A stretch of 64,000 nucleotides of DNA, from positions 33,142-97,141 of IMG/VR virus record IMGVR_UViG_3300024239_000013. One strand, given 5' to 3'. The notes under the pieces are model-generated. The model saw only the letters and a program-made list of their open reading frames with translations, did no database searches and had not been told where the DNA came from. This DNA is from a virus. Below are positions 3,020 to 21,834 of the stretch, piece after piece (the stretch's first letter is position 1; each line of letters starts with the position of its first letter). Made by a program: the position numbers and the translations under genes.

Positions 3020-3850
3020 TTAGGGAGTGTAGTTGTCTAGGAAGTGAATAGCCCTTCTCGCCGAATTCCTATTAAATGTTTCTCTGCTCTTAGTGTGTTT
3101 TCTGTAGTATTCACCTCTTCCGAATTCTCTATCGTAGTCATATCCAGGAGAGAGGTAGGATTCCAATTCATCTATGAGTTCGCTCACTATTTCCTTAGTA
3201 TCTATGGGAGCGAGGTCTGTTTCTAGATCCAGCCAGTCCTGAGATGACTTAGGAACCAAAGGATCATTTAGTAGATCTGTGGCGTAGTTGATTGCAGAGT
3301 CTGCGTCGTTTTGTAGTTCGATCTCGGAGCTCGGGTAGGTTAGCTGTAAAGCATATTCCTCCGGGAGGTCCAGTGTTCTAACCACCCACTTATCAGCTTT
3401 GAGCTTATCCTGAGGTCTCTTAGGTGTAAGGATAGTGAATAGTGGGATCCCAATGAAAAGCTCGAACAACTGCTCGTCATCATCGTAGTCTATTTCTCTG
3501 TATAGATCGGGTTCGCCGTCGTAATAGCTTTCCTTCAGACCTTCACCCTCACCTTTATCCTTACTCATCTCCTTATAAAGAGAAAGAGCCGAGGGTTCGT
3601 CAACCAACCCAGCCTTTACGAGTTTGGTGTAGTATGCAGGATCTTCCCATAGGTGATCCAATGCTATCTCTTCTGCAATCCCTTTGTTGTCGGCGTGTTC
3701 AGATTCTACTGCCACCCCGAGTTCCAGTTGCTTATTTTTTAGACTAAGTAGCGTGGCTTCATCTGAGATGCCATGTCTTTTGGCTACCGCGGGTAGGGTT
3801 GGGGGTTTGGAGGCTCCGCCCTGTAAGAACGATTCGAACTTTTGTATCAT
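3020..3850 (-). CDS. hypothetical acidic protein
   Basis: 276-aa ORF; no recognisable motif. Confidence 0.55.
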   Translation of the reverse strand: MIQKFESFLQGGASKPPTLPAVAKRHGISDEATLLSLKNKQLELGVAVESEHADNKGIAEEIALDHLWEDPAYYTKLVKAGLVDEPSALSLYKEMSKDKGEGEGLKESYYDGEPDLYREIDYDDDEQLFELFIGIPLFTILTPKRPQDKLKADKWVVRTLDLPEEYALQLTYPSSEIELQNDADSAINYATDLLNDPLVPKSSQDWLDLETDLAPIDTKEIVSELIDELESYLSPGYDYDREFGRGEYYRKHTKSRETFNRNSARRAIHFLDNYTP

Positions 3851-3919
3851 GTTATGTTAGGTTATGTTATATTGTATTGTTCCTTGTATATATTTACATG
3901 CGTGTTAAAGAGGATGAGA

Positions 3920-5000
3920 GTTAAGACTAAGACTAAGACTAAGACTAAGGTTTCTCTGGGGAATTTTGGGGAGAATCCCAGAGAGGGCCCGGCCTCCAAA
4001 TAGATAATAGATATAGTAAAGCTAAGTATACTAAGACTAAGACTAAGTATAAAGCTAAAGCTAAAGCTAATTAGACTAAGGCTAAGACTAAGACTAAGTA
4101 TAGACATAGGTATACTAAGAAGACATCCACTATCCAGACTAAGACTAAGACTTGTTCCGTTCCTAGTTCAGCTAAGAGAACTAATCTGAGTGGTGGGCTC
4201 GCGTGCCTCTTGTGGAACCCGGGGCGAGGCGAAGGGTAAAGGGGTACAGAGGGGGTAAACGGGGCGATTATCGGGGCGGGGAAATCGGGGCGAGATTCGG
4301 GGTCGGACTACGGGGGAAGAAACCAAGTTTTTTTCCAGTTTTTTCCAGTTTTTTCCACTTCGTTACACTCTGCCAACTTGGTGGGGAAACCCCGGGGGTA
4401 AACGGGGATTTCTTAGAATCTCCCAGAAACACCCTGGGTGGTGGGCTCGGCCCTAAAGAGGGGCTTCCACAAGGGCCCTTTTTACGAGAAAACCCCCGGT
4501 TGGATATGGATAAGTACCTGGATACTCTCTGGTTGGGTACGACTAAGTGATAGGGATACTCTCTGGTTGGATATGGATAAGTACCTGGATACTCTCTGGT
4601 TACGTAACGATTGGGGAATGTGTCTACGTCTCTCTATGTACTAATGACTGAAGCGTCTTGAATTCCTTACGCGGGTATGCGTCCATGTAGTAACTTACTA
4701 TCATACTATGTTTCTTTAGATAGTGTGGTTATTGTACTTAGTCTTAGTCTTTCTTATCTCTTCTCACTCTACTTGACTACTGAGAATTGGTTTGTTATGC
4801 TACGTAACTTATCTAGTAGTATAATGAGATAGATGTGGATATTATGCTTACTGTGCATCACCCTGGGTAGTCTTAGTCTTAGTCTTAGTCTACCACCTAC
4901 ATTTATGCTTAGCTTTATACTTAGTCTTAGTGACGGAAAATGTATGAGCTATTTGGAGGCCGGGCCCTCTAGGAGAAAGGAGCCCGAAATCCCCCTCGAG
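3920..5000. repeat. GC-rich, G-run-rich non-coding island. It is flanked by perfect 21-bp inverted repeats (AGAGGGCCCGGCCTCCAAATA at 3982-4002; its reverse complement at 4950-4970) and by (TAAGAC)n on the left, (GTCTTA)n on the right. Internal direct repeats: CCAGTTTTTT x3 at 4327-4358, a roughly 32-bp unit duplicated at 4503-4534 and 4570-4601, and ATCGGGGCG-like units at 4260-4310
   Basis: Read directly in the sequence; composition contrasts sharply with the AT-rich surroundings; ORFs inside are low-complexity. Confidence 0.8.
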
Positions 5001-5260
5001 CTCTCATTTCACCCAATTGCCTGATCCATGTTAACCGACATGATATAGAATGGATCTTTTTAAAGTAATATACAGAAAATAAAAGAAACCCATTAAAATT
5101 TTTGAGAATTTCAACTCAAATAAATCTGTTGATATGATCTTGATGGTTTCCCCGAGATCAAAGCGGGGGTGATCGAAAGGACTGGTATGGGATCTTCCTA
5201 GAATTGCAGCACTAAAAAGAATCGGAATGCTTTAATGTCGCATTCAGCATTTAATTAAAA

Positions 5261-5284
5261 GGCAGGTTGATTCCTGCTTTTTTT
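5261..5284 (+). terminator. rho-independent terminator-like hairpin (GCAGG-TTGATT-CCTGC followed by a T-run)
   Basis: Stem-loop plus T-run read in the sequence. Confidence 0.4.
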
Positions 5285-5526
5285 GCGCAGATTCCATAGG
5301 TCTGAGAGTTTTTATTCAAATTCATATATCACAATAAAACAATCAGTATGGTATTTATTATACGCATTCTTAAATGCAGCAAAGTGATTTACAGAAACTC
5401 GCTAAAAAAAGATCTCTATGTCTTTATCCTAACAAAAACCGGACAATGTTTTAGAGATATATAAAACAGAACAAAATAAAAGGTGAATTGTATAAAAAGG
5501 CGGACAATAAAAAAATCCCAAAAAAT

Positions 5527-6354
5527 ATGAGCATTAAGAATTATAAAACATTCATAAGTGAAAGTTCGGATGCAAGTACACTGACAACTGAACAAATAGA
5601 TTTCCTTGACAAGTATGTTATCGGTAAATGGCATATGAATGATGATGGATTTGTTGATGTTGATGGCGTGTTTGATTGTTCTAATAAAGGGATATCTGAT
5701 TTTAAAGGAATAAAGTTTGGTAATGTTGATAGACATTTTAATTGTGCTGATAACAAATTAACCTCATTAGAAGGCGGTCCAAAAGAGGTTGGTGGTAGTT
5801 TTTATTGTAGTCATAACAAAATAACCTCATTAGAATTTGGTCCGAAAGAAGTTGGTGGTCATTTTTATTGTAATCATAACAACATAACCTCATTAGAAGG
5901 TTGTCCAAAAGAGGTCGGCGGTAGTTTTAATTGTTCGTATAACAACTTAATCTCATTAGAATTTGGTCCAAAAGAGGTGAAAGGATATTTTAATTGCTCA
6001 GATAACAACTTAATCTCATTAGAAGGAGCTCCGAAAGAAGTTGACGGTAGTTTTAATTGCTCAGATAACAACTTAATCTCATTAGAAGGAGCTCCAATAG
6101 AAATTGGGCGGGAATTTTATTTGGATCATAACGAAGGTGCATCAGCAGAAACTCTAAAATCGATATACAGTAAAATGAAAGAAGCCAAATCTGATTATAA
6201 AACAGTTTTAAAATCTTTATGGAAAGGAATATCAATAGGAGATAAAATACTTTTATACACACCAGATCTGGATTGGGTTGAAGAAGATGAAGCGGCTAAA
6301 TTATATAACCTAAAGAAGTACAATAGCATAAAGAAAATGCTCTATTTCATATAA
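5527..6354 (+). CDS. targeting-sequence/LRR-like tandem family member 1 (putative capsid-internal, injected protein). Probable start at the internal Met (MSIKNYKTFISESS); the track ORF begins at 5488
   Basis: N-terminal Y-K-T-F-I-S-E-S motif; 22-aa F-x-C-S-x-N-x-L-T/I-S-L-E-G-x-P-K-E-V-G-G repeats; conserved C-terminal domain (KTVLKSLW...LYTPDLDWVEEDE...LKKYNSIKKM). Confidence 0.75.
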   Translation: MSIKNYKTFISESSDASTLTTEQIDFLDKYVIGKWHMNDDGFVDVDGVFDCSNKGISDFKGIKFGNVDRHFNCADNKLTSLEGGPKEVGGSFYCSHNKITSLEFGPKEVGGHFYCNHNNITSLEGCPKEVGGSFNCSYNNLISLEFGPKEVKGYFNCSDNNLISLEGAPKEVDGSFNCSDNNLISLEGAPIEIGREFYLDHNEGASAETLKSIYSKMKEAKSDYKTVLKSLWKGISIGDKILLYTPDLDWVEEDEAAKLYNLKKYNSIKKMLYFI

Positions 6355-6368
6355 TATAAAGAAGCATA

Positions 6369-7064
6369 ATGAAAAGAATCTCAAATTATAAAACATTCAT
6401 AAATGAAAGTACAGGTGCAAGTACATTGACTGCAGAACAGATCGATTTCCTTGATAGATGTGTTAGAGGAACGTGGAAGCTGAATGATGAAGAATTTGTT
6501 GATGTTGATGGGAATTTTGATTGTTTCAATAAAGGAATATCTGACTTTAAAGGAATAAAGTTTGGTAAGGTTAATGGAGATTTTGATTGTTCATATAATA
6601 ATTTAAGTTCTTTGGAAGGATGTCCAAAAGAAGTTGTTGGACATTTTGATTGCTCACATAACAAATTATCTTCATTAGAATTTGCTCCGGAAAGGGTGAG
6701 AAGTAGTTTTTATTGCTCACACAACAACTTAACCTCATTAGAATTTGCTCCGGAAAGGGTGAAAAATAGTTTTTATTGTCAGAATAACAGCTTAACCTCA
6801 TTAGATGGGGTTCCTAAAAAAGTTGGAGGATTTTTTTATTTTGATCATAATGAAGGGATTTCTTCAGAAACCTTAAAAATGATATCCATCCAAATGAAAG
6901 TAATCAAATCTGATTATAAAACAGTTTTAAAATCTTTATGGAGTGAAATACCAGTAGAAGACAAAGTACTTTTATATTCATCAGATCTAGATTGGGTTGA
7001 AGAAGATGAAGGATCTAAATTATCTAATCTAAAGAAGTATAAAAACATAAAGAAAATGATCTAA
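6369..7064 (+). CDS. targeting-sequence/LRR-like tandem family member 2
   Basis: Same N-terminal motif, repeats and C-terminal domain; conserved upstream junction ...TAATATAATATAAAGAAGCATAATG. Confidence 0.8.
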   Translation: MKRISNYKTFINESTGASTLTAEQIDFLDRCVRGTWKLNDEEFVDVDGNFDCFNKGISDFKGIKFGKVNGDFDCSYNNLSSLEGCPKEVVGHFDCSHNKLSSLEFAPERVRSSFYCSHNNLTSLEFAPERVKNSFYCQNNSLTSLDGVPKKVGGFFYFDHNEGISSETLKMISIQMKVIKSDYKTVLKSLWSEIPVEDKVLLYSSDLDWVEEDEGSKLSNLKKYKNIKKMI

Positions 7065-7080
7065 TATAATATAAAGCAAC

Positions 7081-7965
7081 ATGATGAAAAGAATCTCGAA
7101 TTATAAAACATTCATAAACGAAAGCTCGAGTGAAAATAAGCTGACTCAGAAACAACTTGATTTTCTTAACAACCACGTTAAGGGATATTGGAAGTTGAAT
7201 GCTGGAGTTGTTGATGTTGATGGCGATTTTGATTGTTTTAGTAAAGGGATATCAGACTTTAAAGGAATAGTGTTTGGAAAGGTTAGCGGAGATTTTGATT
7301 GCTCACGTAATAATTTAAGTTCTTTAAAAGGTGCTCCTAAAGAGGTTGGTGGACATTTTGATTGTTCACATAACAACTTAAAATCATTAGAAGGAGCTCC
7401 AAAACAGGTTAGTGGAGATTTTGATTGCTCACGTAATAATTTAAGTTCTTTGGAAGGTGCTCCTAAAGAGGTTGGTGGACATTTCCATTGTTCATACAAC
7501 AAATTAACATCATTAGAAGGTTGTCCTAAAGAAGTTGGTGGACATTTTTATTGTTATGTTAACAAATTAACCTCATTAGAATTTGGTCCTAAAGAAGTTG
7601 GTGGAGATTTCGATTGCTCTGACAACAAATTAACCTCATTAGAATTTGGTCCCGAAGAGGTTGGGAGAAGCTTTAATTGCTCAAATAACAAATTAACATC
7701 ATTAGAAGGAGCTCCTAAAGAAGTTGGTGGAGATTTACGATTTTCTCATAATGAGGGAATATCAACCAAAACGATAGGTCTTATATTTGACAAAATGAAA
7801 AAGTCCAAATTGGACTATTCTGATGCTTTAAAATCTTTATGGAAAGAAATACCAGTAGAAGACAAAGTACTTTTATATTCATCAGATCTAGATTGGATTG
7901 AAGAAGATGAAGCGTCTAAATTAGTTAAGTTAAAGAAGTATAATAGCATAAAGAAAATGATCTAA
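7081..7965 (+). CDS. targeting-sequence/LRR-like tandem family member 3
   Basis: Paralog architecture; MMKRISNYKTFINESS start. Confidence 0.8.
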   Translation: MMKRISNYKTFINESSSENKLTQKQLDFLNNHVKGYWKLNAGVVDVDGDFDCFSKGISDFKGIVFGKVSGDFDCSRNNLSSLKGAPKEVGGHFDCSHNNLKSLEGAPKQVSGDFDCSRNNLSSLEGAPKEVGGHFHCSYNKLTSLEGCPKEVGGHFYCYVNKLTSLEFGPKEVGGDFDCSDNKLTSLEFGPEEVGRSFNCSNNKLTSLEGAPKEVGGDLRFSHNEGISTKTIGLIFDKMKKSKLDYSDALKSLWKEIPVEDKVLLYSSDLDWIEEDEASKLVKLKKYNSIKKMI

Positions 7966-7984
7966 TATAATATAAAGAAGCATA

Positions 7985-8869
7985 ATGAAAAGAATCTCAA
8001 ATTATAAAACATTCATAAACGAAAGCTCGAGTGAAAGTACGCTAACACCTGAACAAATTAATTTCCTTAACAATTATGTTAAGGGATATTGGAAGTTGAA
8101 TGCTGATGGAGTTGTTGATGTAGATGGCCATTTTAGTTGTTTCAATAAAGGGTTATCAGACTTTAAAGGAATAGTGTTTGGAAAGGTTAATAGAGATTTT
8201 GATTGTTCAAACAACAACTTAACCTCATTAGAAGGCTGTCCAAAAAAAGTTGGGGGAGATTTTTTTTGTTATGTTAACAAATTAACCTCTTTAAAAGGAT
8301 CGCCAAAAGAGGTTGGTGGTAGTTTTATTTGTTCAGGTAATAACATAATCACATTGGAAGATGCACCTAAAAAAACCAGAAGAAGCTTTGATTGCTCACA
8401 TAATAAATTAACATCATTAGAATTCGGTCCAAAAGAGGTTGGAGGCAATTTTAACTGCTCGCATAATAAATTAACATCATTAGAAGGTGCTCCTGAAGAA
8501 GTTGGTGTGGATTTTTATTGTTATTATAACGAATTGAATAATCTAAAGGGTTCCTCGTATGTAGTTGGAAGAGATTTTAACTGCTCGGATAATAAATTAA
8601 CATCATTAGAAGGAGCTCCAAAAGAAATTGGAGATGATTTCATATTAGAAGATAATGAAGGTGTTTCTTCAGAAATCTTAAAAGAGATATTTAGAAAAAT
8701 GTTAGAATCCAAATTGGACTATAAAACAGTTTTAAAATCTTTATGGAAAGAAATCTCAATAGAAGATAAAATACTTTTATACACACCAGATCTAGACTGG
8801 GTTGAAGAAGATGAAGGGTCCAAATTAGTTAAGCTAAAGAAGTATAGCAACATAAAGAAAATGATCTAG
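7985..8869 (+). CDS. targeting-sequence/LRR-like tandem family member 4
   Basis: Paralog architecture. Confidence 0.8.
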   Translation: MKRISNYKTFINESSSESTLTPEQINFLNNYVKGYWKLNADGVVDVDGHFSCFNKGLSDFKGIVFGKVNRDFDCSNNNLTSLEGCPKKVGGDFFCYVNKLTSLKGSPKEVGGSFICSGNNIITLEDAPKKTRRSFDCSHNKLTSLEFGPKEVGGNFNCSHNKLTSLEGAPEEVGVDFYCYYNELNNLKGSSYVVGRDFNCSDNKLTSLEGAPKEIGDDFILEDNEGVSSEILKEIFRKMLESKLDYKTVLKSLWKEISIEDKILLYTPDLDWVEEDEGSKLVKLKKYSNIKKMI

Positions 8870-8883
8870 TATAAATCAGCATA

Positions 8884-9828
8884 ATGAAAAGAATAATAAA
8901 TTATAAAACATTCGTAAATGAAAGTTCAGGTGCAAGTACACTGACAACTGAACAAATAGATTTCCTTAACAGGTATGTTAGGGGGAAATGGAAGTTGAAT
9001 GCTGGAGTTGTTGATGTTGATGGCGATTTTGATTGTTTTAGTAAAGGGATATCAGACTTTAAAGGAATAGTGTTTGGAAAGGTTAGCGGAGATTTTGATT
9101 GCTCACGTAATAATTTAAGTTCTTTAAAAGGTGCTCCTAAAGAGGTTGGTGGACATTTTGATTGTTCACATAACAACTTAAAATCATTAGAAGATGCACC
9201 TAAAAAAACTGGACGTAGTTTTTATTGTTCGTATAATAAATTAACCTCATTAGAATTTGCTCCGGAAAGGGTGAGAAGTAGTTTTCATTGTCAGAATAAC
9301 AGCTTAACCTCATTAGAAGGAGCTCCTAAAGAAGTTGGAGGGTATTTCGATTGCTCAAGCAACAACTTAACCTCATTAGAAGGAGCTCCAAAAGAGATTG
9401 GGTATGATTTCGATTGCTCACACAACAACTTAACCACATTAGAAGGCTGTCCAAAAGAAATTGTTGAAGATTTCGATTGCTCACACAACAACTTAACCAC
9501 ATTGGAATTCTCTCCAGAGAAAGTTGGTGTTAATTTTTATTGCTTCAATAACAACTTAATTTCATTAAAAGGAGCTCCAAAAGAGATTGGATATGATTTC
9601 ATATTAAAAAATAATGAAGGAGCATCATCAGAAATCTTAAAAGAGATATTTAGAAAAATGTTAGAATCCAAATTGGACTACTCTGATGTTTTAAAATCCC
9701 TTTGGGATGAAATACCAATAAAAGATAAAATAGTTCTATATACCCCTGATCTAGACTGGGTTGAAGAAGATGAAGCGTCTAAATTATCTAAGTTAAAGAA
9801 GTATAGCAACATAAAGAAAATGATCTAG
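8884..9828 (+). CDS. targeting-sequence/LRR-like tandem family member 5
   Basis: Paralog architecture; 9 repeat units. Confidence 0.8.
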   Translation: MKRIINYKTFVNESSGASTLTTEQIDFLNRYVRGKWKLNAGVVDVDGDFDCFSKGISDFKGIVFGKVSGDFDCSRNNLSSLKGAPKEVGGHFDCSHNNLKSLEDAPKKTGRSFYCSYNKLTSLEFAPERVRSSFHCQNNSLTSLEGAPKEVGGYFDCSSNNLTSLEGAPKEIGYDFDCSHNNLTTLEGCPKEIVEDFDCSHNNLTTLEFSPEKVGVNFYCFNNNLISLKGAPKEIGYDFILKNNEGASSEILKEIFRKMLESKLDYSDVLKSLWDEIPIKDKIVLYTPDLDWVEEDEASKLSKLKKYSNIKKMI

Positions 9829-9842
9829 TATAAATCAGCATA

Positions 9843-10727
9843 ATGAAAAGAATAATAAATTATAAAACATTCGTAAATGAAAGTTCAGGTGCAAGTACAC
9901 TGACAACTGAACAAATAGATTTCCTTAACAGGTATGTTAGGGGGAAATGGAAGTTGAATAATGATGGGGTTGTTGATGTAGATGGGGATTTTAATTGTTT
10001 TAATAAAGGGTTATCAGACTTTAAAGAAATAAAATTTGGAAAAGTTACAGGATATTTTGATTGCTCTAAGAACAACTTAACCTCATTAGAGGGTTCACCA
10101 AAAAAAGTTGGTGTAGATTTTTATTGTAGTCATAACAAATTAACCTCATTAGAAGGAGCGCCTATAGAAGTTTATAGAAGTTTCGATTGCAAGGGTAACA
10201 AATTAACCTCGTTAGAATTCGGTCCAAAAAAGGTGGAGGGAAATTTTATTTGTTCAATTAACAAATTAACCTCGTTAGAATTCGGTCCAAAAGGAGTTCC
10301 TGGAACTTTCAATTGTTCATTTAACAAATTAACCTCGTTAGAATTCGGTCCAAAAGAAGTCGGAAGTAGTTTTAATTGCTCATTTAACAACTTAACCTCA
10401 TTAGAATTCTCTCCAGAGAAAGTTGATGTTGATTTTTATTGCTCGAATAATAAATTAACATCATTAGAAGGTGTCCCAAAAGAAATTGGTGGATATTTCT
10501 GGTGTTCTTATAATGTTGGACTATCGACAGATATAATAAATCTTATATTCAGAAAAATGATAAAGTATAGATCTGATTATAAAACAGTTTTAAAATCTTT
10601 ATGGAAAGAAATCTCAATAGAAGACAAGATACTTTTATATTCATCAGATCTAGATTGGATTGAAGAAGATGAAGCGGCTAAATTAGCTAAGTTAAAGAAG
10701 TATAGCAACATAAAGAAAATGATCTAG
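9843..10727 (+). CDS. targeting-sequence/LRR-like tandem family member 6
   Basis: Paralog architecture; 5' region nearly identical to member 5 at the nucleotide level. Confidence 0.8.
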   Translation: MKRIINYKTFVNESSGASTLTTEQIDFLNRYVRGKWKLNNDGVVDVDGDFNCFNKGLSDFKEIKFGKVTGYFDCSKNNLTSLEGSPKKVGVDFYCSHNKLTSLEGAPIEVYRSFDCKGNKLTSLEFGPKKVEGNFICSINKLTSLEFGPKGVPGTFNCSFNKLTSLEFGPKEVGSSFNCSFNNLTSLEFSPEKVDVDFYCSNNKLTSLEGVPKEIGGYFWCSYNVGLSTDIINLIFRKMIKYRSDYKTVLKSLWKEISIEDKILLYSSDLDWIEEDEAAKLAKLKKYSNIKKMI

Positions 10728-10741
10728 TATAAATCAGCATA

Positions 10742-11689
10742 ATGAAAAGAATAATAAATTATAAAACATTCATAAACGAAAGCTCGAGTGAAAATAACTT
10801 GACACCTGAACAGATATATTTCCTGAACAAGCAGATTAAGGGGAAATGGAAGTTGAATGCTGATGGGGTTGTTGATGTTGTTGGAAATATCCATTGTTCA
10901 CATAGAGAAATATCGGACTTCAAGGGAATAAAATTCGGAAAAGTTACTGGGTATTTTGATTGCTCAAATAACAACTTAACATCATTAGAGGGTTGTCCAA
11001 AAGAGGTTGGTGGACATTTTTATTGTTCATATAACAGCTTAACATCATTAGAGGGTTGTCCAAAAGAGGTTGGGGGACATTTTTATTGTCAACGTAACAA
11101 CTTAACCTCATTAGAAGGTGGTCCAGAAAGAGTGAATGGAGATTTCATTTGTTATGGTAACAAATTAGCTTCATTAGAATTTGGACCCAAGGAGGTTAGA
11201 GGTACTTTCGATTGCTCAAATAACAAATTAACATCCTTAGAAGGATGCTCTAAAGAGGTGAATGGAGATTTCGATTGCACATATAACAAATTAACATCAT
11301 TAGAATTCTCTCCAGTTAAAGTTGGTGGTACTTTCGATTGTTCAGATAATAACTTAACCTCATTAGAATTTGGACCTGAAGATGTTGGGGGAGGCTTTAA
11401 TTGTTCCCGTAATAAATTAACCTCATTAGAAGGAGCTCCTAAAGAAGTTGGAGGTACTTTACGATGTTTTTATAATGAGGGTTTATCAAACGAAACAATA
11501 GGTCTTATATTTGAAAAAATGATAAAATCCAGATTGGATTATAAAACAGTTTTAAAATCTTTATGGGGAGAAATACCAATAAAAGATAAAATAGTTCTAT
11601 ATACCCCTGATCTGGATTGGGTTGAAGGAGATGAAGCGGCTAAATTATCTAATCTAAAGAAGTATAGCAACATAAAGAAAATGATCTAA
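10742..11689 (+). CDS. targeting-sequence/LRR-like tandem family member 7
   Basis: Paralog architecture. Confidence 0.8.
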   Translation: MKRIINYKTFINESSSENNLTPEQIYFLNKQIKGKWKLNADGVVDVVGNIHCSHREISDFKGIKFGKVTGYFDCSNNNLTSLEGCPKEVGGHFYCSYNSLTSLEGCPKEVGGHFYCQRNNLTSLEGGPERVNGDFICYGNKLASLEFGPKEVRGTFDCSNNKLTSLEGCSKEVNGDFDCTYNKLTSLEFSPVKVGGTFDCSDNNLTSLEFGPEDVGGGFNCSRNKLTSLEGAPKEVGGTLRCFYNEGLSNETIGLIFEKMIKSRLDYKTVLKSLWGEIPIKDKIVLYTPDLDWVEGDEAAKLSNLKKYSNIKKMI

Positions 11690-11705
11690 TATAATATAAA
11701 AAAAC

Positions 11706-12653
11706 ATGATGAAAAGAATAGTAAATTATAAAACATTCATAAACGAAAGCTCTGGTGAAAATAACCTGACCCCAGAACAAATTGATTTCCTTAACAACTA
11801 TGTTAAGGGGAAATGGAAGTTTAATGTTGGAGTTGTTGATATTGATGGCGATTTTAGTTGTTTCGATAGAGGAATATCTGACTTTAAAGGAATAGTGTTT
11901 GGAAGGGTTACCGGTCATTTTGACTGTTCGGATAACAACTTAACATCATTAGAAGGTTGTCCAAAAGAGGTTGGTGGAAATTTTTATTGTCATTATAACA
12001 ACTTAACCTCATTAGAAGGTTGTCCAAAAGAGGTTGGCGGACATTTTTATTGTCATTATAACAACTTAACATCATTAGAAGGTTGTCCAAAAAAAGTGAA
12101 TGGAGATTTCGATTGCACAGATAACAACTTAACCTCATTAGAATTCGGTCCAAAAGAGATTAATGGACATTTTTATTGTTATGATAACAGCTTAACCTCA
12201 TTAGAATTTGGTCCCGAAAGAGTGAATGGAGATTTTGATTGTTCGAATAACAACTTAACCTCATTAGAATTTGGACCCAAAGAGGTTGGTGGTACTTTCG
12301 ATTGCTCACGTAATAACTTAAGCTCGTTAGAAGGTGTTCCTGAAAAGCTGAACGGAGTTTTTTATTTCTCATGTAACAAATTAACCTCATTAGAAGGTGC
12401 TCCTAAAAAACTAGGATCACAATTTTTTTGTGAGAATAATGAAGGGATATCAACCAAAACGATAAATCTTATATTTGACAAAATGGAAACCTCCAAATCT
12501 GATTATAAAACAGTTTTAAAATCTTTATGGAAAGAAATACCAATAGAAGATAAAATACTTTTATACACCCCAGATCTTGATTGGGTTGAAGAAGATGAAG
12601 GGTCTAAATTAGCTAAGTTAAAGAAGTATAGCAACATAAAGAAAATGATCTAA
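11706..12653 (+). CDS. targeting-sequence/LRR-like tandem family member 8
   Basis: Paralog architecture. Confidence 0.8.
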   Translation: MMKRIVNYKTFINESSGENNLTPEQIDFLNNYVKGKWKFNVGVVDIDGDFSCFDRGISDFKGIVFGRVTGHFDCSDNNLTSLEGCPKEVGGNFYCHYNNLTSLEGCPKEVGGHFYCHYNNLTSLEGCPKKVNGDFDCTDNNLTSLEFGPKEINGHFYCYDNSLTSLEFGPERVNGDFDCSNNNLTSLEFGPKEVGGTFDCSRNNLSSLEGVPEKLNGVFYFSCNKLTSLEGAPKKLGSQFFCENNEGISTKTINLIFDKMETSKSDYKTVLKSLWKEIPIEDKILLYTPDLDWVEEDEGSKLAKLKKYSNIKKMI

Positions 12654-12671
12654 TATAATATAAAGAGCACA

Positions 12672-13367
12672 ATGAAAAGAATAGTAAATTATAAAACTTT
12701 CATAAATGAAAGTGCAGGTGCAAGTACACTGACTTCAGAACAGATAGATTTCCTTAACAACTATGTTAAGGGGAAATGGAAGCTGAATGGTGAAGGATTT
12801 ATTGATATAGATGGTGATTTTAGTTGTTTCGATAAAGGGTTATCAGACTTTAGATGGATAAAATTTGGAAAAGTTACAGGGTATTTTTATTGTTCATATA
12901 ATGGATTGACATCATTAGAGGGAGCACCAAAAAAAGTTGGTTTGAGTTTTTATTGTCATAATAACAAATTAACATCATTGGATGGCTCTCCTAAAGAGAT
13001 TGGTGGAAATTTCGATTGCTCTGACAACAAATTAACCTCATTAGAATTCTCACCCGAAAGTGTAAAGGGGAGCTTTGATTGCTCATATAACAACTTAACA
13101 TCATTAGAATTTGGTCCTAAAGAAGTTGGCGGAGATTTACGATTTTCTCATAATGAGGGATTGTCAACCAAAACGATAGGTCTTATATTTGACAAAATGG
13201 AAAAGTCCAAATTGGACTATAAAACAGTTTTAAAATCTTTATGGAAAGAAATACCAATAGAAGATAAAATACTTTTATACAATGCGGATCTAGATTGGAT
13301 TGAAGGAGATGAAGCGGCTAAATTAGCTAAGTTGAATAAATATAGCAACATAAAGAAAATGATCTAA
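12672..13367 (+). CDS. targeting-sequence/LRR-like tandem family member 9 (short, fewer repeats)
   Basis: Paralog architecture. Confidence 0.8.
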   Translation: MKRIVNYKTFINESAGASTLTSEQIDFLNNYVKGKWKLNGEGFIDIDGDFSCFDKGLSDFRWIKFGKVTGYFYCSYNGLTSLEGAPKKVGLSFYCHNNKLTSLDGSPKEIGGNFDCSDNKLTSLEFSPESVKGSFDCSYNNLTSLEFGPKEVGGDLRFSHNEGLSTKTIGLIFDKMEKSKLDYKTVLKSLWKEIPIEDKILLYNADLDWIEGDEAAKLAKLNKYSNIKKMI

Positions 13368-13386
13368 TATAATATAAAGAAACATA

Positions 13387-14271
13387 ATGAAAAGAATAGT
13401 AAATTATAAAGCATTCATAAACGAAATCTCGAGTGAAAATAACTTGACACCAGAACAGATAGATTTCCTTAACAGGTATGTTGAGGGGAAATGGAAGTTG
13501 AATGCTGATGGAGCTGTTGATGTAGATGGCGATTTTAGTTGTTTCGATAAAGGGTTATCAGACTTTAAAGGAATAGTGTTTGAGAAGATTAGTGGAGATT
13601 TTGACTGTTCGGCTAACAGCTTAATATCATTAGAAGGTTGTCCAAAAGAGGTTAATGGATATTTTTATTGTCATTATAACAAACTAACCTCATTAGAATT
13701 TGGTCCTGAAAGTGTAGATGGAGATTTCGATTGTTCGAATAACAATTTAACTTCATTAGAATTTGGACCCAAAGAGGTTGGTGGAAATTTTGACTGTTCA
13801 TACAACAAATTAACCTCATTAGAAGTCTGTCCAAAAAAAGTTGGGGGAACTTTCAATTGTTCATTTAATAAATTAACATCATTAGAATTCAGTCCAAAAG
13901 AGGTTGGTGGTAGTTTCAATTGCTCATTTAACAACTTAACATCGTTGCAATTCTCTCCAGAGAAAGTTGATGCTTATTTTCATTGTTCAAATAACAACTT
14001 AACCTCATTAGAAGGGGTATCAAAAGAAGTTGGAGGGAATTTAAGATGTTTTTATAATGAAGGGCTATCAACCGAAACAATAAATCTTATATTTGACAAA
14101 ATGATAAAGTCCAAATTGGACTATTCTGATGCTTTAAAATCTTTATGGAAAGAAATACCAGTAGAAGACAAAGTACTTTTATACACACCCGATCTAGATT
14201 GGGTTGAAGAAGACGAAGCGTCTAAATTAGCTAAGCTAAAGAAGTATAGCAGCATAAAGAAAATGATCTAG
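13387..14271 (+). CDS. targeting-sequence/LRR-like tandem family member 10
   Basis: Paralog architecture. Confidence 0.8.
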   Translation: MKRIVNYKAFINEISSENNLTPEQIDFLNRYVEGKWKLNADGAVDVDGDFSCFDKGLSDFKGIVFEKISGDFDCSANSLISLEGCPKEVNGYFYCHYNKLTSLEFGPESVDGDFDCSNNNLTSLEFGPKEVGGNFDCSYNKLTSLEVCPKKVGGTFNCSFNKLTSLEFSPKEVGGSFNCSFNNLTSLQFSPEKVDAYFHCSNNNLTSLEGVSKEVGGNLRCFYNEGLSTETINLIFDKMIKSKLDYSDALKSLWKEIPVEDKVLLYTPDLDWVEEDEASKLAKLKKYSSIKKMI

Positions 14272-14285
14272 TATAAAGAAGAATA

Positions 14286-15233
14286 ATGAAAAGAATAGTA
14301 AATTATAAAACTTTTATAAACGAAAGTTCAGGTGCAAGTACACTGACAACTGAACAGATAGATTTCCTTAACAGGTATGTTAAGGGGAAATGGAAGTTGA
14401 ATGATAATGGAGTTGTTGATGTTGATGGTGATTTTAGTTGTTCCGATAAAGAAATATCAGACTTTAAAGGAATAATATTTGGAAAAGTTACCGGTCATTT
14501 CTATTGCTCAAGTAACAACTTAAGATCATTAGAAGGTTGTCCCAAAGAGGTTGGAGGGGGTTTCAATTGCTCACGTAATGAATTAACATCATTGGAAGGT
14601 TGTCCAGAAAGGGTGAATGGAGATTTCATTTGTTATGGTAACAACTTAACCTCATTAGAAGGTTGTACAGAAAGAGTGAATGGAGATTTCATTTGTTCGG
14701 CTAACAACTTAACCTCATTAGAAGGCTGCCCTAAGGAAGTTGAGGGATTTTTCAATTGTTCATTTAATAAATTAGCTTCTTTAGAAGGATGTCCTGGAGA
14801 AATTGGAAGTAGTTTTTATTGTTCGTATAACAAATTAACCTCATTAGAATTTGGCCCAGAAATGGTGAATGGAGATTTCGTTTGTTCAGATAACAAATTA
14901 ACCTCGTTAGAATTCAGTCCAAAAGAAGTTGGTGGTAATTTTATTTGTTCAGATAACAACTTAACATCATTAGAGGGAATATCAAAAAAAGTTGGGGGAT
15001 CTTTATGGTGTTCTTCTAATGAAGGACTATCAACCGAAACGATAGATCTTATATTTGATAAAATCATAAAGTTCAAATTGGACTATTTGGATGCTTTAAA
15101 TTTTTTATGGGAGGATATCCCAATAGAAGATAAAGTACTTTTATACACACCCGATTTAGATTGGATTGAAGGAGAGGAAGCGGTTAAATTATCTAATCTA
15201 AAGAAGTATAGTAAAATAAAGAAAATGATATAA
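14286..15233 (+). CDS. targeting-sequence/LRR-like tandem family member 11
   Basis: Paralog architecture. Confidence 0.8.
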   Translation: MKRIVNYKTFINESSGASTLTTEQIDFLNRYVKGKWKLNDNGVVDVDGDFSCSDKEISDFKGIIFGKVTGHFYCSSNNLRSLEGCPKEVGGGFNCSRNELTSLEGCPERVNGDFICYGNNLTSLEGCTERVNGDFICSANNLTSLEGCPKEVEGFFNCSFNKLASLEGCPGEIGSSFYCSYNKLTSLEFGPEMVNGDFVCSDNKLTSLEFSPKEVGGNFICSDNNLTSLEGISKKVGGSLWCSSNEGLSTETIDLIFDKIIKFKLDYLDALNFLWEDIPIEDKVLLYTPDLDWIEGEEAVKLSNLKKYSKIKKMI

Positions 15234-15750: not shown

Positions 15751-16335
15751 TTGAATGAATTAAATTTAAGTATTCAGACAATATTTAAAGAAGATCTTAA
15801 GTGTTTATATTTTAATGATATATATAAAATGAATAAAATATTAACATTAAGCGCATTGATAGCTCCGGTTATTTATGAAGCTCAGATCACAGTGATGAAC
15901 CAGAGTTCCATAGAATCGGGACTAAAGATAGTAAAAGGATTAATCAAAAGAGGGTTTACTCCTAAAGCTGCAGCTGCAATAGCAGGAAATATGTGGCAGG
16001 AATCTAGGTTTAATCCAAAGATTAGCCACAAAAACTCTCAGCACGTTGGTATAGTACAATGGGGTGGTAAGAGAAAGCAAAACCTAATGAAAAGATCTGG
16101 ATGGAGCAGATTAGAAACACAATTAGATTTTGTTAAACATGAATTTGATACAAACGATCAGTTTAAAAAGCTACTAAAGAACATCGAAAAGGTGTCATTG
16201 AAAAAAGCAACCGAAGCAGTTGCAAGAACCTATGAGGGATGCAGAGATCCTCATCACCCAAATAGGAATTCGGCTGCACAAAAACTGTTTGAAGCATATA
16301 AAAAAGAAAAACAGACAGTAGATATAATAGAATAA
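15751..16335 (+). CDS. putative peptidoglycan hydrolase (phage tail lysozyme-like motif A-I-A-G-N-M-W-Q-E-S-R-F-N-P ... G-I-V-Q-W)
   Basis: Motif resembles the G-N-x-x-x-E-S-x-F-N-P / Q-W signature of phage tail-lysozyme-type muramidases; this family assignment is from memory. Confidence 0.45.
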   Translation: MNELNLSIQTIFKEDLKCLYFNDIYKMNKILTLSALIAPVIYEAQITVMNQSSIESGLKIVKGLIKRGFTPKAAAAIAGNMWQESRFNPKISHKNSQHVGIVQWGGKRKQNLMKRSGWSRLETQLDFVKHEFDTNDQFKKLLKNIEKVSLKKATEAVARTYEGCRDPHHPNRNSAAQKLFEAYKKEKQTVDIIE

Positions 16336-16354: not shown

Positions 16355-16630
16355 ATGAAAAACATAAAACTATATGAAAATTTCATTAACGAAAAAATTT
16401 CATCCGAAGCTGTTTATATTCACAATATAACCGGTGCTGGACAACAATCTATTCAAAACTTTATTGACGACAATAATATAGACGCTGATAAATTAGCGGA
16501 ATATGTGAAAGTAAATAAGGATCATAAAGAAAAGTATGATGTAAGAGATATGATTTCAGGAACTGGACTAGGATCAGATAAAAATAGAAGAGAAAATTTT
16601 ATTAAAAAATTCAAGAGAGGTAAAAAATAG
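16355..16630 (+). CDS. small protein with targeting-like N-terminus (MKNIKLYENFINEK)
   Basis: 91 aa; Y-E-N-F-I-N-E motif. Confidence 0.55.
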   Translation: MKNIKLYENFINEKISSEAVYIHNITGAGQQSIQNFIDDNNIDADKLAEYVKVNKDHKEKYDVRDMISGTGLGSDKNRRENFIKKFKRGKK

Positions 16631-16698: not shown

Positions 16699-17661
16699 AT
16701 GACAGAAGAAAAACTTTTTAGATGGACTAATTATTCAGTAAAGTCACTAGAAAATTTAATTGAAGGGATGGAAAAACATCATCCGGAAGATTATAAAAAG
16801 ATAAAGGAAATAAGTGATCGTTTACTATTGTATTATAGGGGAGATAATATATTAACAGAAAAACAAAAAAATACTCTAGATTCTTTATCTAAAGATTGGT
16901 ACATATCACCAGAAAACGGAGGGGTTAATATTGGATATATGTATGCTTCGGATTGGGGATTATCCATTAAAAATTATTGGGAAGAGGATACGGAATCTGC
17001 GAGAAAAAAAAGACTAAAGCTTTTTGAGGATCTTAAAAAAATAAAATTTAATGAGGTTTATTCTCTTTCTTTGAGATCGTGTGGATTAGAAGAATTTTGG
17101 CCAAATATGCCAAAAAGAACTTCTAGATTTGATTGTTCCTATAATAAGATAGAAAGTCTAGTTGGAGGTCCAGAATATGCTAGTGAATACGATTTCTGTG
17201 GGAATAATATTAAAAGCTTTGATGGGTTACCTGACAATGTTAAAGAATTAGATTGCAGTCATAACCCAATAGAGGATTTTTCAACCCTAAAAGTTAAAGA
17301 ATTATTAAGGTTTAGATGTCGGGATACACATATAAAAAATCTAATAGGTTGTCCTAAAGTTACAACCTTTTTAGACGTATCAGGATGTAAGTTAACCTCA
17401 GTTGAAGGAGCCCCGTTAAATTTAACCTTAAGAGAGGTTAATTTTGGGGAAAATGTGGTTAGTGAAAAAACATTAAAACTTGCTTTCAATGCAATGAAAA
17501 AAGCTAAAGGAGATTATGGTAAAGGATTGGATAAAATATGGAAAAAAATACCTATAGAAGACCAAATACAAATGTATAAGGACAATCCAAATCTTACTAA
17601 TGATGAGGTAAAAAAATATTACAATTTAAAAAAATATTTTGATATAAAAACTTTTATATAA
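16699..17661 (+). CDS. divergent member of the LRR-like family; lacks the targeting-like start but keeps F-D-C-S-x-N repeats and the conserved C-terminal domain
   Basis: FDCSYNKIESLVGGP and LDCSHNPIEDF repeats; C-terminal GDYGKGLDKIWKKIPIEDQIQMY...NLKKYFDIKTFI parallels the family C-terminus. Confidence 0.6.
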   Translation: MTEEKLFRWTNYSVKSLENLIEGMEKHHPEDYKKIKEISDRLLLYYRGDNILTEKQKNTLDSLSKDWYISPENGGVNIGYMYASDWGLSIKNYWEEDTESARKKRLKLFEDLKKIKFNEVYSLSLRSCGLEEFWPNMPKRTSRFDCSYNKIESLVGGPEYASEYDFCGNNIKSFDGLPDNVKELDCSHNPIEDFSTLKVKELLRFRCRDTHIKNLIGCPKVTTFLDVSGCKLTSVEGAPLNLTLREVNFGENVVSEKTLKLAFNAMKKAKGDYGKGLDKIWKKIPIEDQIQMYKDNPNLTNDEVKKYYNLKKYFDIKTFI

Positions 17662-17699: not shown

Positions 17700-18056
17700 A
17701 TGAAAAACCTAAAAGTTTATGAAAACTTCCTAATCAAATCTCCCGGATTAGATATCGATACAAATAAAAAAGAAATTAATCCAGGTTTTAATGACTATAC
17801 AAAAAAACCAAATGTGACCCCTGAACAAGAAGCCATCAGAAATAAACTAGAATCTGATGTAAAGAGAATGTACCCAAAAATAGTTATAAAACATTCACCA
17901 GACGGACAATCAGGTGCATCTGTAGATAATATAGTTATTTACGCTACTGATCATTACGACTCATTTAACGCATTCTTATTTGGTTTGGTGATGGGTAAGA
18001 TTCATGGAAGCGAAATGCCAGCTAAAATGGCATCTAGAATAGGCGAAGATTTATAA
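17700..18056 (+). CDS. small protein with targeting-like N-terminus (MKNLKVYENFLIKS)
   Basis: 118 aa. Confidence 0.55.
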   Translation: MKNLKVYENFLIKSPGLDIDTNKKEINPGFNDYTKKPNVTPEQEAIRNKLESDVKRMYPKIVIKHSPDGQSGASVDNIVIYATDHYDSFNAFLFGLVMGKIHGSEMPAKMASRIGEDL

Positions 18057-18186: not shown

Positions 18187-18990
18187 ATGAAAAAAATAGC
18201 ATCATTTAATGAGTTTGTAAATGAGGATAACGGGCTTCTAGGACACATAGCTCCATTATTGGGTAGCATTGAAATAGATGGTAAAAAAAAAGCAGAGGAA
18301 ATTAGAAGCCAGGATACAGGTTCTGAGATTGATCAAGGTGATCTTTTACCGTCCGATTTTAATCCATTTCCAGGTAATGATGATTTCACTCTTTATATGC
18401 AACATCAGCAAGGAGTAGCTGGAGCAAAGGGATTAATAGAAGCATCTTTAGGAACTGGTAAATTAGCATCAGATACGATCAAAACCAAGAATGGTAAAAA
18501 ATATGCAAATTTAATTTCAAATGTTCCTAGCGACAAACCTCAAATTAAAAATTCCATAATAAAAGCATTAGACTCGGGTGATCAAAAAACTGCATCGGTT
18601 TTATTCCTAAATATGTGGAAGGAAAAATGGAACCGAGCATATAAAGATGCAAAGATCGAAATAGAAAAGCCACAAAACTCTACTGCTAAATCAGCTATAA
18701 AAAAATACAGTTCAGCATATGGGGTTCCTTTTGATTTTGCTATAACCGTAGCAAAATTGGAATCCGGATTTAAGCCTAATGTAGGAAACAATACCTATAA
18801 AGGATTATTTGCTCTAAGTCAAAATGGATTTAATAAATATGTTCCTGGAGGAAATATTTTTAACCCAGATGATAATGCTAAAGCAGGAATTCAAAGTCTA
18901 AGAGATAATATAAAAGAATTCAAAAAACAACTAGGTGATAAAACTCTAGCCTCTCTTAATATTGCTCAATGGGCAAAAAATATAGCTTAA
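18187..18990 (+). CDS. targeting-sequence-tagged lytic transglycosylase (SLT domain)
   Basis: N-terminal MKKIASFNEFVNEDNG; SLT-type motif AITVAKLESGFKPNV...YKGLFALSQ. Confidence 0.6.
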   Translation: MKKIASFNEFVNEDNGLLGHIAPLLGSIEIDGKKKAEEIRSQDTGSEIDQGDLLPSDFNPFPGNDDFTLYMQHQQGVAGAKGLIEASLGTGKLASDTIKTKNGKKYANLISNVPSDKPQIKNSIIKALDSGDQKTASVLFLNMWKEKWNRAYKDAKIEIEKPQNSTAKSAIKKYSSAYGVPFDFAITVAKLESGFKPNVGNNTYKGLFALSQNGFNKYVPGGNIFNPDDNAKAGIQSLRDNIKEFKKQLGDKTLASLNIAQWAKNIA

Positions 18991-19305: not shown

Positions 19306-19328
19306 AAATAAAATATAATAAGATAGCA

Positions 19329-19361
19329 AAAAAACTCTAGTGAAAACTAGAGTTTTTTTTT
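19329..19361 (+). terminator. rho-independent terminator-like hairpin (AACTCTAGT-GAAA-ACTAGAGTT followed by T9); A-run upstream makes it potentially bidirectional
   Basis: Read in the sequence. Confidence 0.55.
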
Positions 19362-20058: not shown

Positions 20059-20415
20059 ATGGAAAAAATGATAAAAAATTACAATAATTTTATTAATGAG
20101 TCCAAAAAAGAATCTTTTGAAGAGTTTTCTTTAATTAGATTAAACGGGGCTAAAAAAATAGCAGAAAATGCTAAAGAAAAAGGTGGTGATGCTCTACTTA
20201 CTTACCATCATTTTAAAGTTAAGATACCAACTTATAAAAAAGCTAAAGATGGTGAATTTGATATGATAAATTCTAAAAAAGAATATGAAACCCTTTTAGA
20301 AAAATTATATAAATCAACCAAGGATAATATGAAAATAAGCCAAGTTGAATTTCAGGAATTGGTTGGTAGAATAGAAGTATTAGGAGAACTTATTATCAGA
20401 AAGGAGATAGAATAA
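20059..20415 (+). CDS. small protein with targeting-like N-terminus (MEKMIKNYNNFINESKK)
   Basis: 118 aa. Confidence 0.55.
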   Translation: MEKMIKNYNNFINESKKESFEEFSLIRLNGAKKIAENAKEKGGDALLTYHHFKVKIPTYKKAKDGEFDMINSKKEYETLLEKLYKSTKDNMKISQVEFQELVGRIEVLGELIIRKEIE

Positions 20416-21438: not shown

Positions 21439-21834
21439 CTATTTTTCGTAATAAAAAATCGTATAACCCTCTCCTTCAAAAGCACCTTTGCTTGTTATTG
21501 AAACTATTTCTATTCTATCCTCTTGTTCATTAACCCAATTGACTAGTGTTCCTGCATATTTAAAAGAATCAACCCTTAATTTTCTTATAATTATTAATTC
21601 CCCACTCCCATTTCCCTCTTCAGATTTCGTAAAATGCCTTCTTGTTAATTCAGTTAAAATTAAATTACGCAAACCCATTACTCCAGTAATAAAATCATTT
21701 GTTGAGATTTTATAATGACTCACTAAGAATCTAATATGAGAATCATCAGGAAAGTTTGAAGAATCGCTTTCCCTTGATAATTCTATTAAGGAATCAGTAT
21801 CCAATTTTGATAGATATTCGAAAATATTTTCCAT
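21439..21834 (-). CDS. hypothetical protein
   Basis: 131-aa ORF. Confidence 0.5.
   Translation of the reverse strand: MENIFEYLSKLDTDSLIELSRESDSSNFPDDSHIRFLVSHYKISTNDFITGVMGLRNLILTELTRRHFTKSEEGNGSGELIIIRKLRVDSFKYAGTLVNWVNEQEDRIEIVSITSKGAFEGEGYTIFYYEK

Follow-up and report, generated by a model that had tools for sequence, protein, structure and literature searches.

A tandem array of leucine-rich repeat genes in a jumbo phage genome fragment encodes proteins with a leader resembling the T4 capsid-targeting sequence

The 64,000-nucleotide stretch of viral DNA analysed here (the window; positions 33,142 to 97,141 of IMG/VR record IMGVR_UViG_3300024239_000013) is a piece of a jumbo phage genome. 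It contains a head-to-tail array of eleven paralogous genes for leucine-rich repeat (LRR) proteins, which start with a short leader resembling the capsid-targeting sequence (CTS) of the phage T4 internal proteins. Our favoured explanation, to which we give about an even chance, is that the array is a repertoire of LRR binders of the InlJ/IpaH class, made as precursors whose propeptide of about 13 residues is the form that the T4 CTS takes in this phage clade. Reading the leader as a CTS is the best available explanation, and its support extends beyond resemblance of the motif.

The eleven open reading frames (ORFs) are all intact and lie on the + strand between positions 5527 and 15233 of the window, separated by spacers of 14-19 nt. 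The encoded proteins are 231-315 aa long and are composed of the leader, an LRR solenoid and a helical C-terminal domain. Their parts follow in a constant order: a 13-residue leader, a cap region (LTxEQIDFLN...), the repeats, a half-unit that caps them and a conserved C-terminal domain (about 70 aa). The extreme C-terminus is conserved as well. The first-pass annotation, made from the letters of the window, had described eleven tandem paralogues of variable repeat number with a conserved C-terminal domain of roughly this size. All of this is confirmed, with one degenerate and 4-8 canonical repeat units per paralogue, and a divergent twelfth relative, G12, is added to the family. The array genes and G12 are as follows.

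5527-6354, + strand: G1, LRR paralogue of 275 aa; leader MSIKNYKTFISE; 1 degenerate and 6 canonical repeats; ORF open from TTG 5488
6369-7064, + strand: G2, LRR paralogue of 231 aa; 1+4 repeats
7084-7965, + strand: G3, LRR paralogue of 293 aa; 1+7 repeats
7985-8869, + strand: G4, LRR paralogue of 294 aa; 1+7 repeats
8884-9828, + strand: G5, LRR paralogue of 314 aa; 1+8 repeats
9843-10727, + strand: G6, LRR paralogue of 294 aa; 1+7 repeats
10742-11689, + strand: G7, LRR paralogue of 315 aa; 1+8 repeats; the query of the database searches
11709-12653, + strand: G8, LRR paralogue of 314 aa; 1+8 repeats
12672-13367, + strand: G9, LRR paralogue of 231 aa; 1+4 repeats; modelled with AlphaFold2 (AF2)
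13387-14271, + strand: G10, LRR paralogue of 294 aa; 1+7 repeats
14286-15233, + strand: G11, LRR paralogue of 315 aa; 1+8 repeats
16699-17661, + strand: G12, divergent twelfth relative of 320 aa; LRRs and the same C-terminal domain behind a different N-terminal region of 140 aa

G12 is 34% identical to G9 across the LRR and C-terminal domain (E=5e-22). The N-termini of G2 to G11 are MKRI[SIV]NYK[TA]F[IV]NE[SI], so the single N-terminal motif that had been given for every gene holds for these ten with slight variants, and G1 has a different leader. The start of G1 is most likely ATG 5527 (MSIKNYKTFISES), with TTG 5488 being less likely, and a separate gene call on a metagenome contig also gives a protein of 275 aa. 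The family has more than 6600 database relatives, and residues F1, C3, N6 and L11 of the repeat are invariant across 73 canonical units; hence the array is not a product of chance.

The repeat period is 21 aa (63 bp) in every gene, as measured with Tandem Repeats Finder. The period of 22 aa suggested earlier does not stand; the degenerate first unit of each protein has that length. After this first unit come the 4-8 canonical units, F-x-C-S-x-N-x-L-T-S-L-E-G/F-x-P-K-E-V-G-G-x, and the capping half-unit. The 21-aa period also explains why protein lengths of 231, 294 and 315 aa differ by multiples of 21. The cysteine at position 3 is kept in 73 of the 73 canonical units. Pfam LRR_4 matches G7 with 27.2 bits and G12 with 30.1 bits at a cut-off of 27 bits, and Pfam LRRNT matches the stretch that contains the cysteines. 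The AF2 model of G9, built on an alignment of 31 sequences, has a mean predicted local distance difference test score (pLDDT) of 88 and a predicted template modelling score of 0.81. In it, a cap helix (residues 22-31) is followed by a solenoid, to which each unit contributes one short strand, and by four C-terminal helices (residues 166-230). When this model was compared with the Protein Data Bank (PDB) using Foldseek, the top matches were all LRR domains (SspH1, IpaH, variable lymphocyte receptors, InlJ and YopM), with weak E-values. A sequence profile of the family searched against the PDB matched Internalin-J best (3bz5, E=1.3e-26), then SspH2 (E=2e-14), SspH1 (5e-13), IpaH7.8 (1e-7) and SlrP. 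InlJ is a 21-residue LRR protein with a cysteine ladder. The NCBIfam model internalin_J is also matched (E=1e-16), with a score of 60 against a family cut-off of 1700 bits, so the array proteins are not members of the internalin J family. Judged by sequence, the array LRR is of the InlJ/IpaH class with a cysteine ladder. The first-pass annotation had called the repeat a look-alike of the BspA/Tp-type LRR. The LRR call is upheld by Pfam, AF2, Foldseek and the profile. The BspA/TpLRR class is rejected because Pfam LRR_5 has no match to the array proteins at E<=1, the period is 21 rather than roughly 23, and the best relatives are InlJ and IpaH/SspH. No NCBI cluster names were found for relatives. 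In some database relatives (P0005, P0020, P0044, P0052, P0088) the LRR module is fused C-terminally to other domains, among them a dUTPase (P0044; likewise in a Marseillevirus model) and unassigned N-terminal domains of 270-330 aa. These fusions mark the repeat array as a promiscuous module that occurs well beyond small leader-bearing proteins.

The paralogues are 48-77% identical in pairwise protein comparisons. Their synonymous divergence (dS) in the flanking domains is about 0.4-0.7, which is substantial, and therefore the duplications are not recent. Some pairs share long tracts of identical DNA (205 bp in G3/G5, the first 117 bp in G5/G6 and 78 bp in G3/G10) against a median of 35 bp, which argues for gene conversion. 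This pattern in the sequences indicates old duplications overlaid by patchy gene conversion. The near-identical junctions, which are the 14-19-nt spacers, had been taken as a sign of recent duplication or gene conversion, and it is the latter that survives. Variation within the repeat is greatest at unit positions 21, 2, 5, 7 and 14, where entropy is highest and the ratio of non-synonymous to synonymous polymorphism (pN/pS) is about 1-2. In LRR geometry (LxxLxLxxN), the concave beta-sheet and the ascending loop are the usual ligand-binding face. According to this geometry and the DSSP strands of the predicted model, positions 21, 2, 5 and 7 are on the solvent-exposed concave face. As far as function goes, the sequences themselves demonstrate a diversified putative binding face and nothing more. 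Database relatives from other samples (231, 252, 273 and 294 aa) have mosaic relationships to single paralogues. LRR arrays are found recurrently at the extreme ends of long metagenomic contigs (ERZ27245855 k141_97055 and k141_784618; L007, L017, L018, L020, L021 and L023), which indicates that assemblies break on the arrays. Counts of array copies taken from public assemblies are therefore probably too low or affected by chimeras. For example, a 316-aa 'G3' on k141_784618 resembles a join of G3 and G5 across their shared 205-bp tract.

The leader is where the parallel with T4 lies. The T4 CTS, a propeptide of 10-19 residues, relies chiefly on residues 4 and 7 for targeting and on residues 8 and 10 for processing (PMC9026906). 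The N-termini of T4 IPIII and IPII, read from the T4 record, are both MKTYQEFIAE. In the array leader, Y7-x-x-F10-I11-x-E13 reproduces the four critical T4 CTS residues at the same spacing, shifted by three residues from the initiator methionine. Alignment with IPII and IPIII thus bears out the parallel with T4 internal-protein targeting that had been drawn earlier, and makes it exact at the four residues that are experimentally critical in T4. Across 31 family members, Y7 and F10 are invariant or nearly so, E13 is invariant and position 11 is I or V. Residues 1-16, which include the leader, are the sole disordered part of the G9 model (pLDDT <50). The ratio of non-synonymous to synonymous substitution (dN/dS) is 0.12 in the first 14 codons, the minimum of the gene, 0.25 in codons 15-34 and 0.43 in the C-terminal domain. 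The leader codons themselves have a dS of 0.49. Hence it is the peptide, not the DNA, that is conserved, and a purely mRNA-level signal is ruled out. LRR paralogues in other genomes start with MKNLKTYKMFES, MRYLKTYRIFEA or MKHIKEYRVFES. In relatives the leader persists even where the C-terminal domain has been swapped for an unrelated one, and it is found across many genomes with G+C contents of 25-47%.

The leader also heads proteins that are unrelated to the LRR family. A strict pattern, [YF]xx[FW][ILV]xE, occurs at 5 non-LRR N-termini in the window against 0.22 expected, the expectation being taken from the internal frequency of the pattern. A looser pattern occurs at 10 against 0.15 expected. 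Overall, about 12 unrelated window proteins carry the leader where 0.2 would be expected, and the same regular expression applied to the T4 locus selects IPII and IPIII only. The carriers with SLT and CHAP domains have no secretion signal; the CHAP cell-wall hydrolase is encoded just left of the window and starts with MDKIKSFDQFLNEA. A search of PHROGs returned no families for the leader-bearing orphans. The leader-bearing genes of the window outside the array, together with a lysozyme-domain gene embedded among them, are as follows.

3020-3850, - strand: DUF5661 protein of 276 aa; leader-like MIQKFESF; in divergent orientation to the array and syntenic with arrays in L006 and L016
15278-15736, + strand: unrelated protein of 152 aa; leader-like N-terminus MRYIQLYENFSVLNE
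15829-16335, + strand: Phage_lysozyme2-domain protein; hydrophobic N-terminus without leader
16355-16630, + strand: unrelated protein of 91 aa; strict leader MKNIKLYENFINEK
17700-18056, + strand: unrelated protein of 118 aa; leader MKNLKVYENF
18187-18990, + strand: SLT lytic-transglycosylase-domain protein of 267 aa; strict leader MKKIASFNEFVNED
20059-20415, + strand: unrelated protein of 118 aa; strict leader MEKMIKNYNNFINES
43242-43625, - strand: leader-bearing ORF; MNNIKIYENF
43627-44424, - strand: leader-bearing ORF; MEVKNFNNWINESS
44866-45543, - strand: leader-bearing ORF; MRRIKIFEDF
49677-50426, - strand: second SLT-domain protein, 249 aa; leader MLKHIKEYREFE

Relatives of the window connect the leader with a T4-type head. 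Vibrio phage VB_VaC_TDDLMA is the only cultured phage with a close homologue of the LRR proteins. It encodes homologues of T4 gp21, gp23 and gp20 (36, 32 and 31% identity) in the T4 order, and its LRR protein starts MCTFEEWFGE, in the T4 register. At least seven other small proteins of this phage start MKFKQFLAE, MKFKEYLNE, MNFKEYLED or MKFTEYLNE, and two of them are encoded inside the morphogenesis module. The head scaffolding protein of VB_VaC_TDDLMA (L031 12402-13121, - strand) starts MDLGKLFESL, like the leader of cargo-like proteins of the metagenomic clade (…KLFES…). This sequence likeness hints that the leader may mimic a self-association helix of the scaffold. In the wider clade, IMG/VR contigs encode a T4-type neck protein, a sheath protein, a gp32-type single-stranded DNA-binding protein, a UvsW-type helicase and topoisomerase II subunits. 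The head module of the clade is ordered as portal (about 870 aa), a gp21-like protease fused to a coiled-coil scaffold (about 650 aa) and a gp23-like capsid protein. All 120 capsid relatives listed belong to Pfam PF07068 (Gp23). Directly after the capsid gene there are three leader-bearing genes, kept over 48 loci, with the leaders MKN[IL]PSFxEF (380 aa), M[ST]LxFKEWxxLNE[AS] (about 300 aa) and ML[KN]FxxF[VI]xNE (about 89 aa; for example MLKYREFVINE). The capsid protein has an N-terminal ...HYHSLNESAG... that is invariant in 48 of the 48 loci. Its L-N-E-S is a candidate maturation site of the Phi-N-E|S type (Phi, hydrophobic residue), like the end of the leader.

LRR arrays and head modules occur together on two contigs. 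IMGVR_UViG_3300027770_000025 (348,582 bp) has leader-bearing LRR arrays (L015, L120) and a head module (L249), and IMGVR_UViG_3300027963_000042 has two LRR loci (L027/L028) and a head module (L242). Of the 99 window ORFs outside the array, 22 have counterparts in loci of the clade (30-80% identity), and there is synteny along the left flank of the array. These relationships point strongly to a gp21/gp23 head module in the window's own genome. The ClpP homologue of the window (52654-53403, - strand) is 63.5% identical to that at 8748-9458 of L171, from a relative with a G+C fraction of 0.30. The L171 gene lies 1 kb downstream of the gp21/gp23 head module and beside T4-type topoisomerase II genes; the ClpP homologue of the window might be a second morphogenetic or regulatory protease. 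A tblastn search of T4 gp13-gp24 against a first set of loci matched only the terminases of Tenacibaculum phage PTm1 and the Vibrio phage. A scan of viral contigs with an alignment of T4 and Vibrio gp23 recovered close T4 relatives only, and a scan with the L141 capsid protein alone recovered 7 close relatives. In PTm1, Pfam recognises none of the 10 head-region proteins, and the leader is absent from the first 50 kb.

Under the favoured explanation, the disordered leader, with its aromatic-x-x-aromatic and hydrophobic-x-Glu elements, would dock the precursor onto the scaffolding core during prohead assembly. The prohead protease of the gp21 family, fused to the scaffold in this clade, would then cut after I-N-E13, a site very like the invariant L-N-E|S of the clade's capsid propeptide. 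The mature solenoid of 24-34 kDa would remain in the head with the DNA and be ejected into the cell at infection. There its concave face, where nearly all of the variation among paralogues is seated, would bind a host macromolecule, and the 11 or 12 versions would provide breadth against variable host targets. We infer packaging, cleavage, ejection and target binding of the array proteins from sequence, and an anti-defence role for the array would be pure conjecture. A broader proposal, which we hold only tentatively, is that a T4-related jumbo clade (genomes of 130 to >460 kb) uses one portable N-terminal peptide as a general capsid-loading signal. It would be analogous to the cargo peptides of encapsulins. 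Dozens of cargoes, including LRR arrays, cell-wall hydrolases and enzymes of nucleotide metabolism, would be delivered pre-made with the DNA, and the array would be an injected combinatorial repertoire for binding host proteins, the phage counterpart of the LRR effectors secreted by type III systems.

Several observations weigh against packaging of the array proteins. No head gene, protease or scaffold was found in the roughly 100 kb of the window's genome that can be read (the window, L003 and L011), and the genome's own capsid gene is not among the 120 capsid relatives listed in the large-database search. A single step along the 276-kb contig met only small hypothetical genes. The array sits among small early-type genes, and a distance of 60-190 kb separates the LRR loci of the 349-kb relative from its head module. 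About 22 of 110 window ORFs bear some form of the leader when both patterns are counted, which would be a far broader cargo than the three internal proteins of T4. Proteins of relatives that start with the leader include an adenylate kinase (whose domain begins at residue 27), a RimK-type ATP-grasp ligase and a phosphoribosyltransferase. G12 has no leader, and many leader variants do not end in I-x-E, for example MKNLKVYENFLIKS. The mature LRR products have masses of 24-34 kDa, and 10 of 11 are acidic, with isoelectric points (pI) of 4.6-5.9 (G6, 7.9), whereas T4 IPII and IPIII have a pI of about 9.6; the array proteins thus fall outside the small, basic, DNA-associated type. Lastly, a literature search found no virion proteomics with N-terminal mapping for the LRR family.

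Much of this suits the main rival explanation, which we consider unlikely and yet the one to be taken most seriously. It holds that the leader is a general-purpose tag of the clade unrelated to the capsid, serving another assembly or compartment, recognition by a ClpP-type protease, or expression and stability, and that the LRR proteins act inside the cell in host takeover or anti-defence, being made only after infection and not packaged at any stage. The spread of the leader over those three enzymes, the DUF5661 proteins and about one fifth of the window ORFs, the place of the array in an early-type gene block far from any head gene, the ClpP homologue encoded by the phage and the acidity of the mature LRR proteins would all fit such a reading. 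It does not account for the three leader-bearing genes directly after the capsid gene in 48 head modules, nor for the match of all four functional T4 CTS residues and the same L-N-E|S-type site in the capsid propeptide. Additionally, a leader on cell-wall hydrolases that have no secretion signal is sensible if these enzymes are ejected, but not if they are cytoplasmic. It is improbable, in our estimate, that the LRR paralogues instead sit on the outside of the virion and recognise the host as decorations, fibre tips or adhesins, anchored by the C-terminal domain and contacting different surface receptors with their concave faces. LRR domains do occur on the proposed host-recognition fibres of jumbo phage Goslar (bioRxiv 10.64898/2026.04.21.720040). 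Among solved structures, the surface adhesin InlJ is the nearest relative in sequence, both the C-terminal domain and its extreme end show conservation, and a diversified binding face would suit receptor variation. However, the array proteins are small and look monomeric in the model, which predicts no fibre, coiled-coil or trimerisation module. The array is outside any tail or baseplate gene context, relatives swap the C-terminal domain yet keep the leader, and the shared leader is left unexplained. The explanation with the slightest chance, and one already disfavoured, is that the likeness to the T4 CTS is convergent or coincidental, that the first 13 residues are part of the LRR cap, and that the array is a selfish or neutral expansion of repeat genes. 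Short motifs do recur by chance, the leader is shifted by three residues relative to that of T4, and tandem repeat genes expand easily by unequal recombination, of which the gene-conversion tracts are a sign. But in the AF2 model the leader does not pack against the rest of the protein, selection constrains it more tightly than the folded domains, it occurs on unrelated window proteins far more often than expected and recurs across many genomes, and 11 of the 11 ORFs are intact.

The genome that surrounds the array is that of a huge phage. G9 is 100% identical to a protein (P0023) found on contigs of 276,364 and 319,334 bp, and an 89-kb contig of the same sample ends within the array from the opposite side. 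As the 276-kb and 89-kb contigs meet at the array, the genome is at least about 365 kb. A DNA search with 22 kb of the window against deposited phages gave no match. The window also encodes RnlA-type and intein-split RNA ligases, Thg1, SmpB, YqeY, a CCA-adding enzyme, ClpP and homing endonucleases, a gene set typical of huge phages. The translation and tRNA-repair cluster occupies 34804-42847 on the - strand and includes SmpB (42404-42847), Thg1 (38615-39457), YqeY (38167-38625), a PolyA_pol/CCA-adding enzyme (34804-35547) and NT5C (35638-36114). Genes of this kind are unusual for phages and typical of huge phages. One RNA ligase is apparently split (- strand, 45717-48300) into an N-terminal part at 47491-48300 and a C-terminal part at 45717-46454. 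Both parts have weak intein-splicing matches, and a homing-endonuclease gene lies between them (46448-47416). The window has no tRNA or tmRNA gene. At about 21835-21880 on the - strand, upstream of the ORF at 21439-21834, the sequence ...CAGGTTCGAACCCTGTCCTGATTACA resembles a tRNA T-arm and acceptor 3' end. ARAGORN called no tRNA at this site, which may be a tRNA remnant or an attachment-site-like fragment.

A gene-free, G+C-richer spacer of about 1.7 kb (3850-5500) separates the divergent DUF5661 gene from G1. It holds (TAAGAC)n runs in both orientations and long imperfect inverted repeats (3922-4115 versus 4860-4970) around a G+C-rich core, and the core contains a 33-bp tandem repeat in three copies (4498-4601). 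A + strand hairpin at 5262-5277 precedes a run of seven T (T7). An Rfam search of the whole window, including this spacer, found nothing. The spacer could be a mobile element, an origin or a locus for a non-coding RNA. A sigma-70 promoter scan gave 67 sites against 73.6 expected, which is no enrichment. A 'TATAAAT' at the gene junctions was considered as a T4-type late promoter and rejected because it lies only about 8 nt before the ATG. No convincing + strand terminator was found inside the array, and the + strand block that holds it is closed by the following element.

19328-19359, either strand: bidirectional terminator-like hairpin with a 14-bp stem

A different short hairpin, CTTCCCACT-N-AGTGG, occurs at 58544-58560, 60969-60985 and 61316-61335, with degenerate copies near 60570 and 61730. 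It lies 10-20 nt upstream of the starts of consecutive - strand genes, and its three exact copies compare with 0.17 expected. It recalls the promoter and stem-loop cassettes between early genes of T4-type phages.

CTS-directed head cargo as such is already known. What would be new here is a class of LRR cargo that is encoded as a diversified array and belongs to a jumbo branch distant within the T4 superfamily, with a leader that apparently is far wider in use than in T4. The literature searched described no CTS-like leaders outside the work on T-even phages, phiKZ and SPN3US, and no LRR arrays in phages. If the leader is a capsid-loading signal, the T4 CTS would be no peculiarity of the T-even phages but part of an ancient and widely conserved cargo-loading system of the T4 superfamily. 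A CTS recognisable by sequence alone would then allow the injected proteome of uncultured giant phages to be predicted from their genomes. LRR binders would be added to the few proteins that phages are known to inject, and an array that varies at its binding face would suggest an arms race against variable host targets. Such arrays would be a testable source of new anti-defence or host-takeover factors. Additionally, a tag of 13 residues that is functional across distant phages would be of practical use for getting foreign proteins packaged in non-model phages. Should the leader prove not to be a capsid signal, its conservation on about 20% of the genes in a large phage clade would still be a problem worth solving.

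Among known systems, the T4 internal proteins IPI, IPII and IPIII are the nearest in kind. Both have a short N-terminal peptide, a known propeptide in T4 and a putative one in the array, with an aromatic pair at i and i+3 followed directly by hydrophobic-x-Glu (MKTYQEFIAE in T4, MKRIxNYKTFINE in the array), and in both the leader is common to otherwise unrelated proteins. Both loci are hypervariable, recombine and adjoin a lysozyme gene, and a head pathway of the gp21/gp22/gp23 type is present in the clade of the window. The array leader, however, is three residues longer, and there are 11-12 LRR solenoids of 24-34 kDa here in place of three small proteins. The mature array proteins are acidic whereas those of T4 are basic, the protease of the clade is fused to the scaffold, and the leader is found on dozens of proteins, enzymes included. 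The type III LRR effectors IpaH, SspH1, SspH2, SlrP and YopM are related to the array by LRR profile and fold. They also share a concept, in that a short-repeat LRR serves as target-recognition module and is delivered pre-made to the victim cell. The array proteins differ in lacking the NEL E3-ligase domain and a type III secretion signal, their C-terminal four-helix domain is unrelated, and their delivery, if any, would be via the phage tail. Listeria InlJ (3bz5) has the same 21-residue period and a cysteine in place of a core leucine in every repeat. Unlike InlJ, which is an 850-aa surface adhesin, the array proteins have 231-315 aa and no signal peptide, inter-repeat Ig-like region or LPXTG anchor. 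The jumbo phages phiKZ, 201phi2-1 and SPN3US pack many proteins into their heads and have paralogous families of ejection proteins with propeptides. In SPN3US, gp53, gp54 and others are paralogous head proteins whose conserved N-termini are removed after Glu by a gp21-related protease (PMC5694885). The propeptides of these three phages are mostly longer than 100 residues with A/S/G-x-E sites, in contrast to the short portable leader that spans dozens of proteins here, and they have no LRR cargo. Lastly, the LRR/FNIP expansions of giant eukaryotic viruses and the LRR proteins of 'uncultured Caudovirales' give fold matches in BFVD, including a dUTPase-LRR fusion like P0044. The giant-virus expansions, like the array, are multi-copy families with no assigned function, but they belong to viruses of another host domain, and neither a shared leader nor an association with a head module has been described for them.

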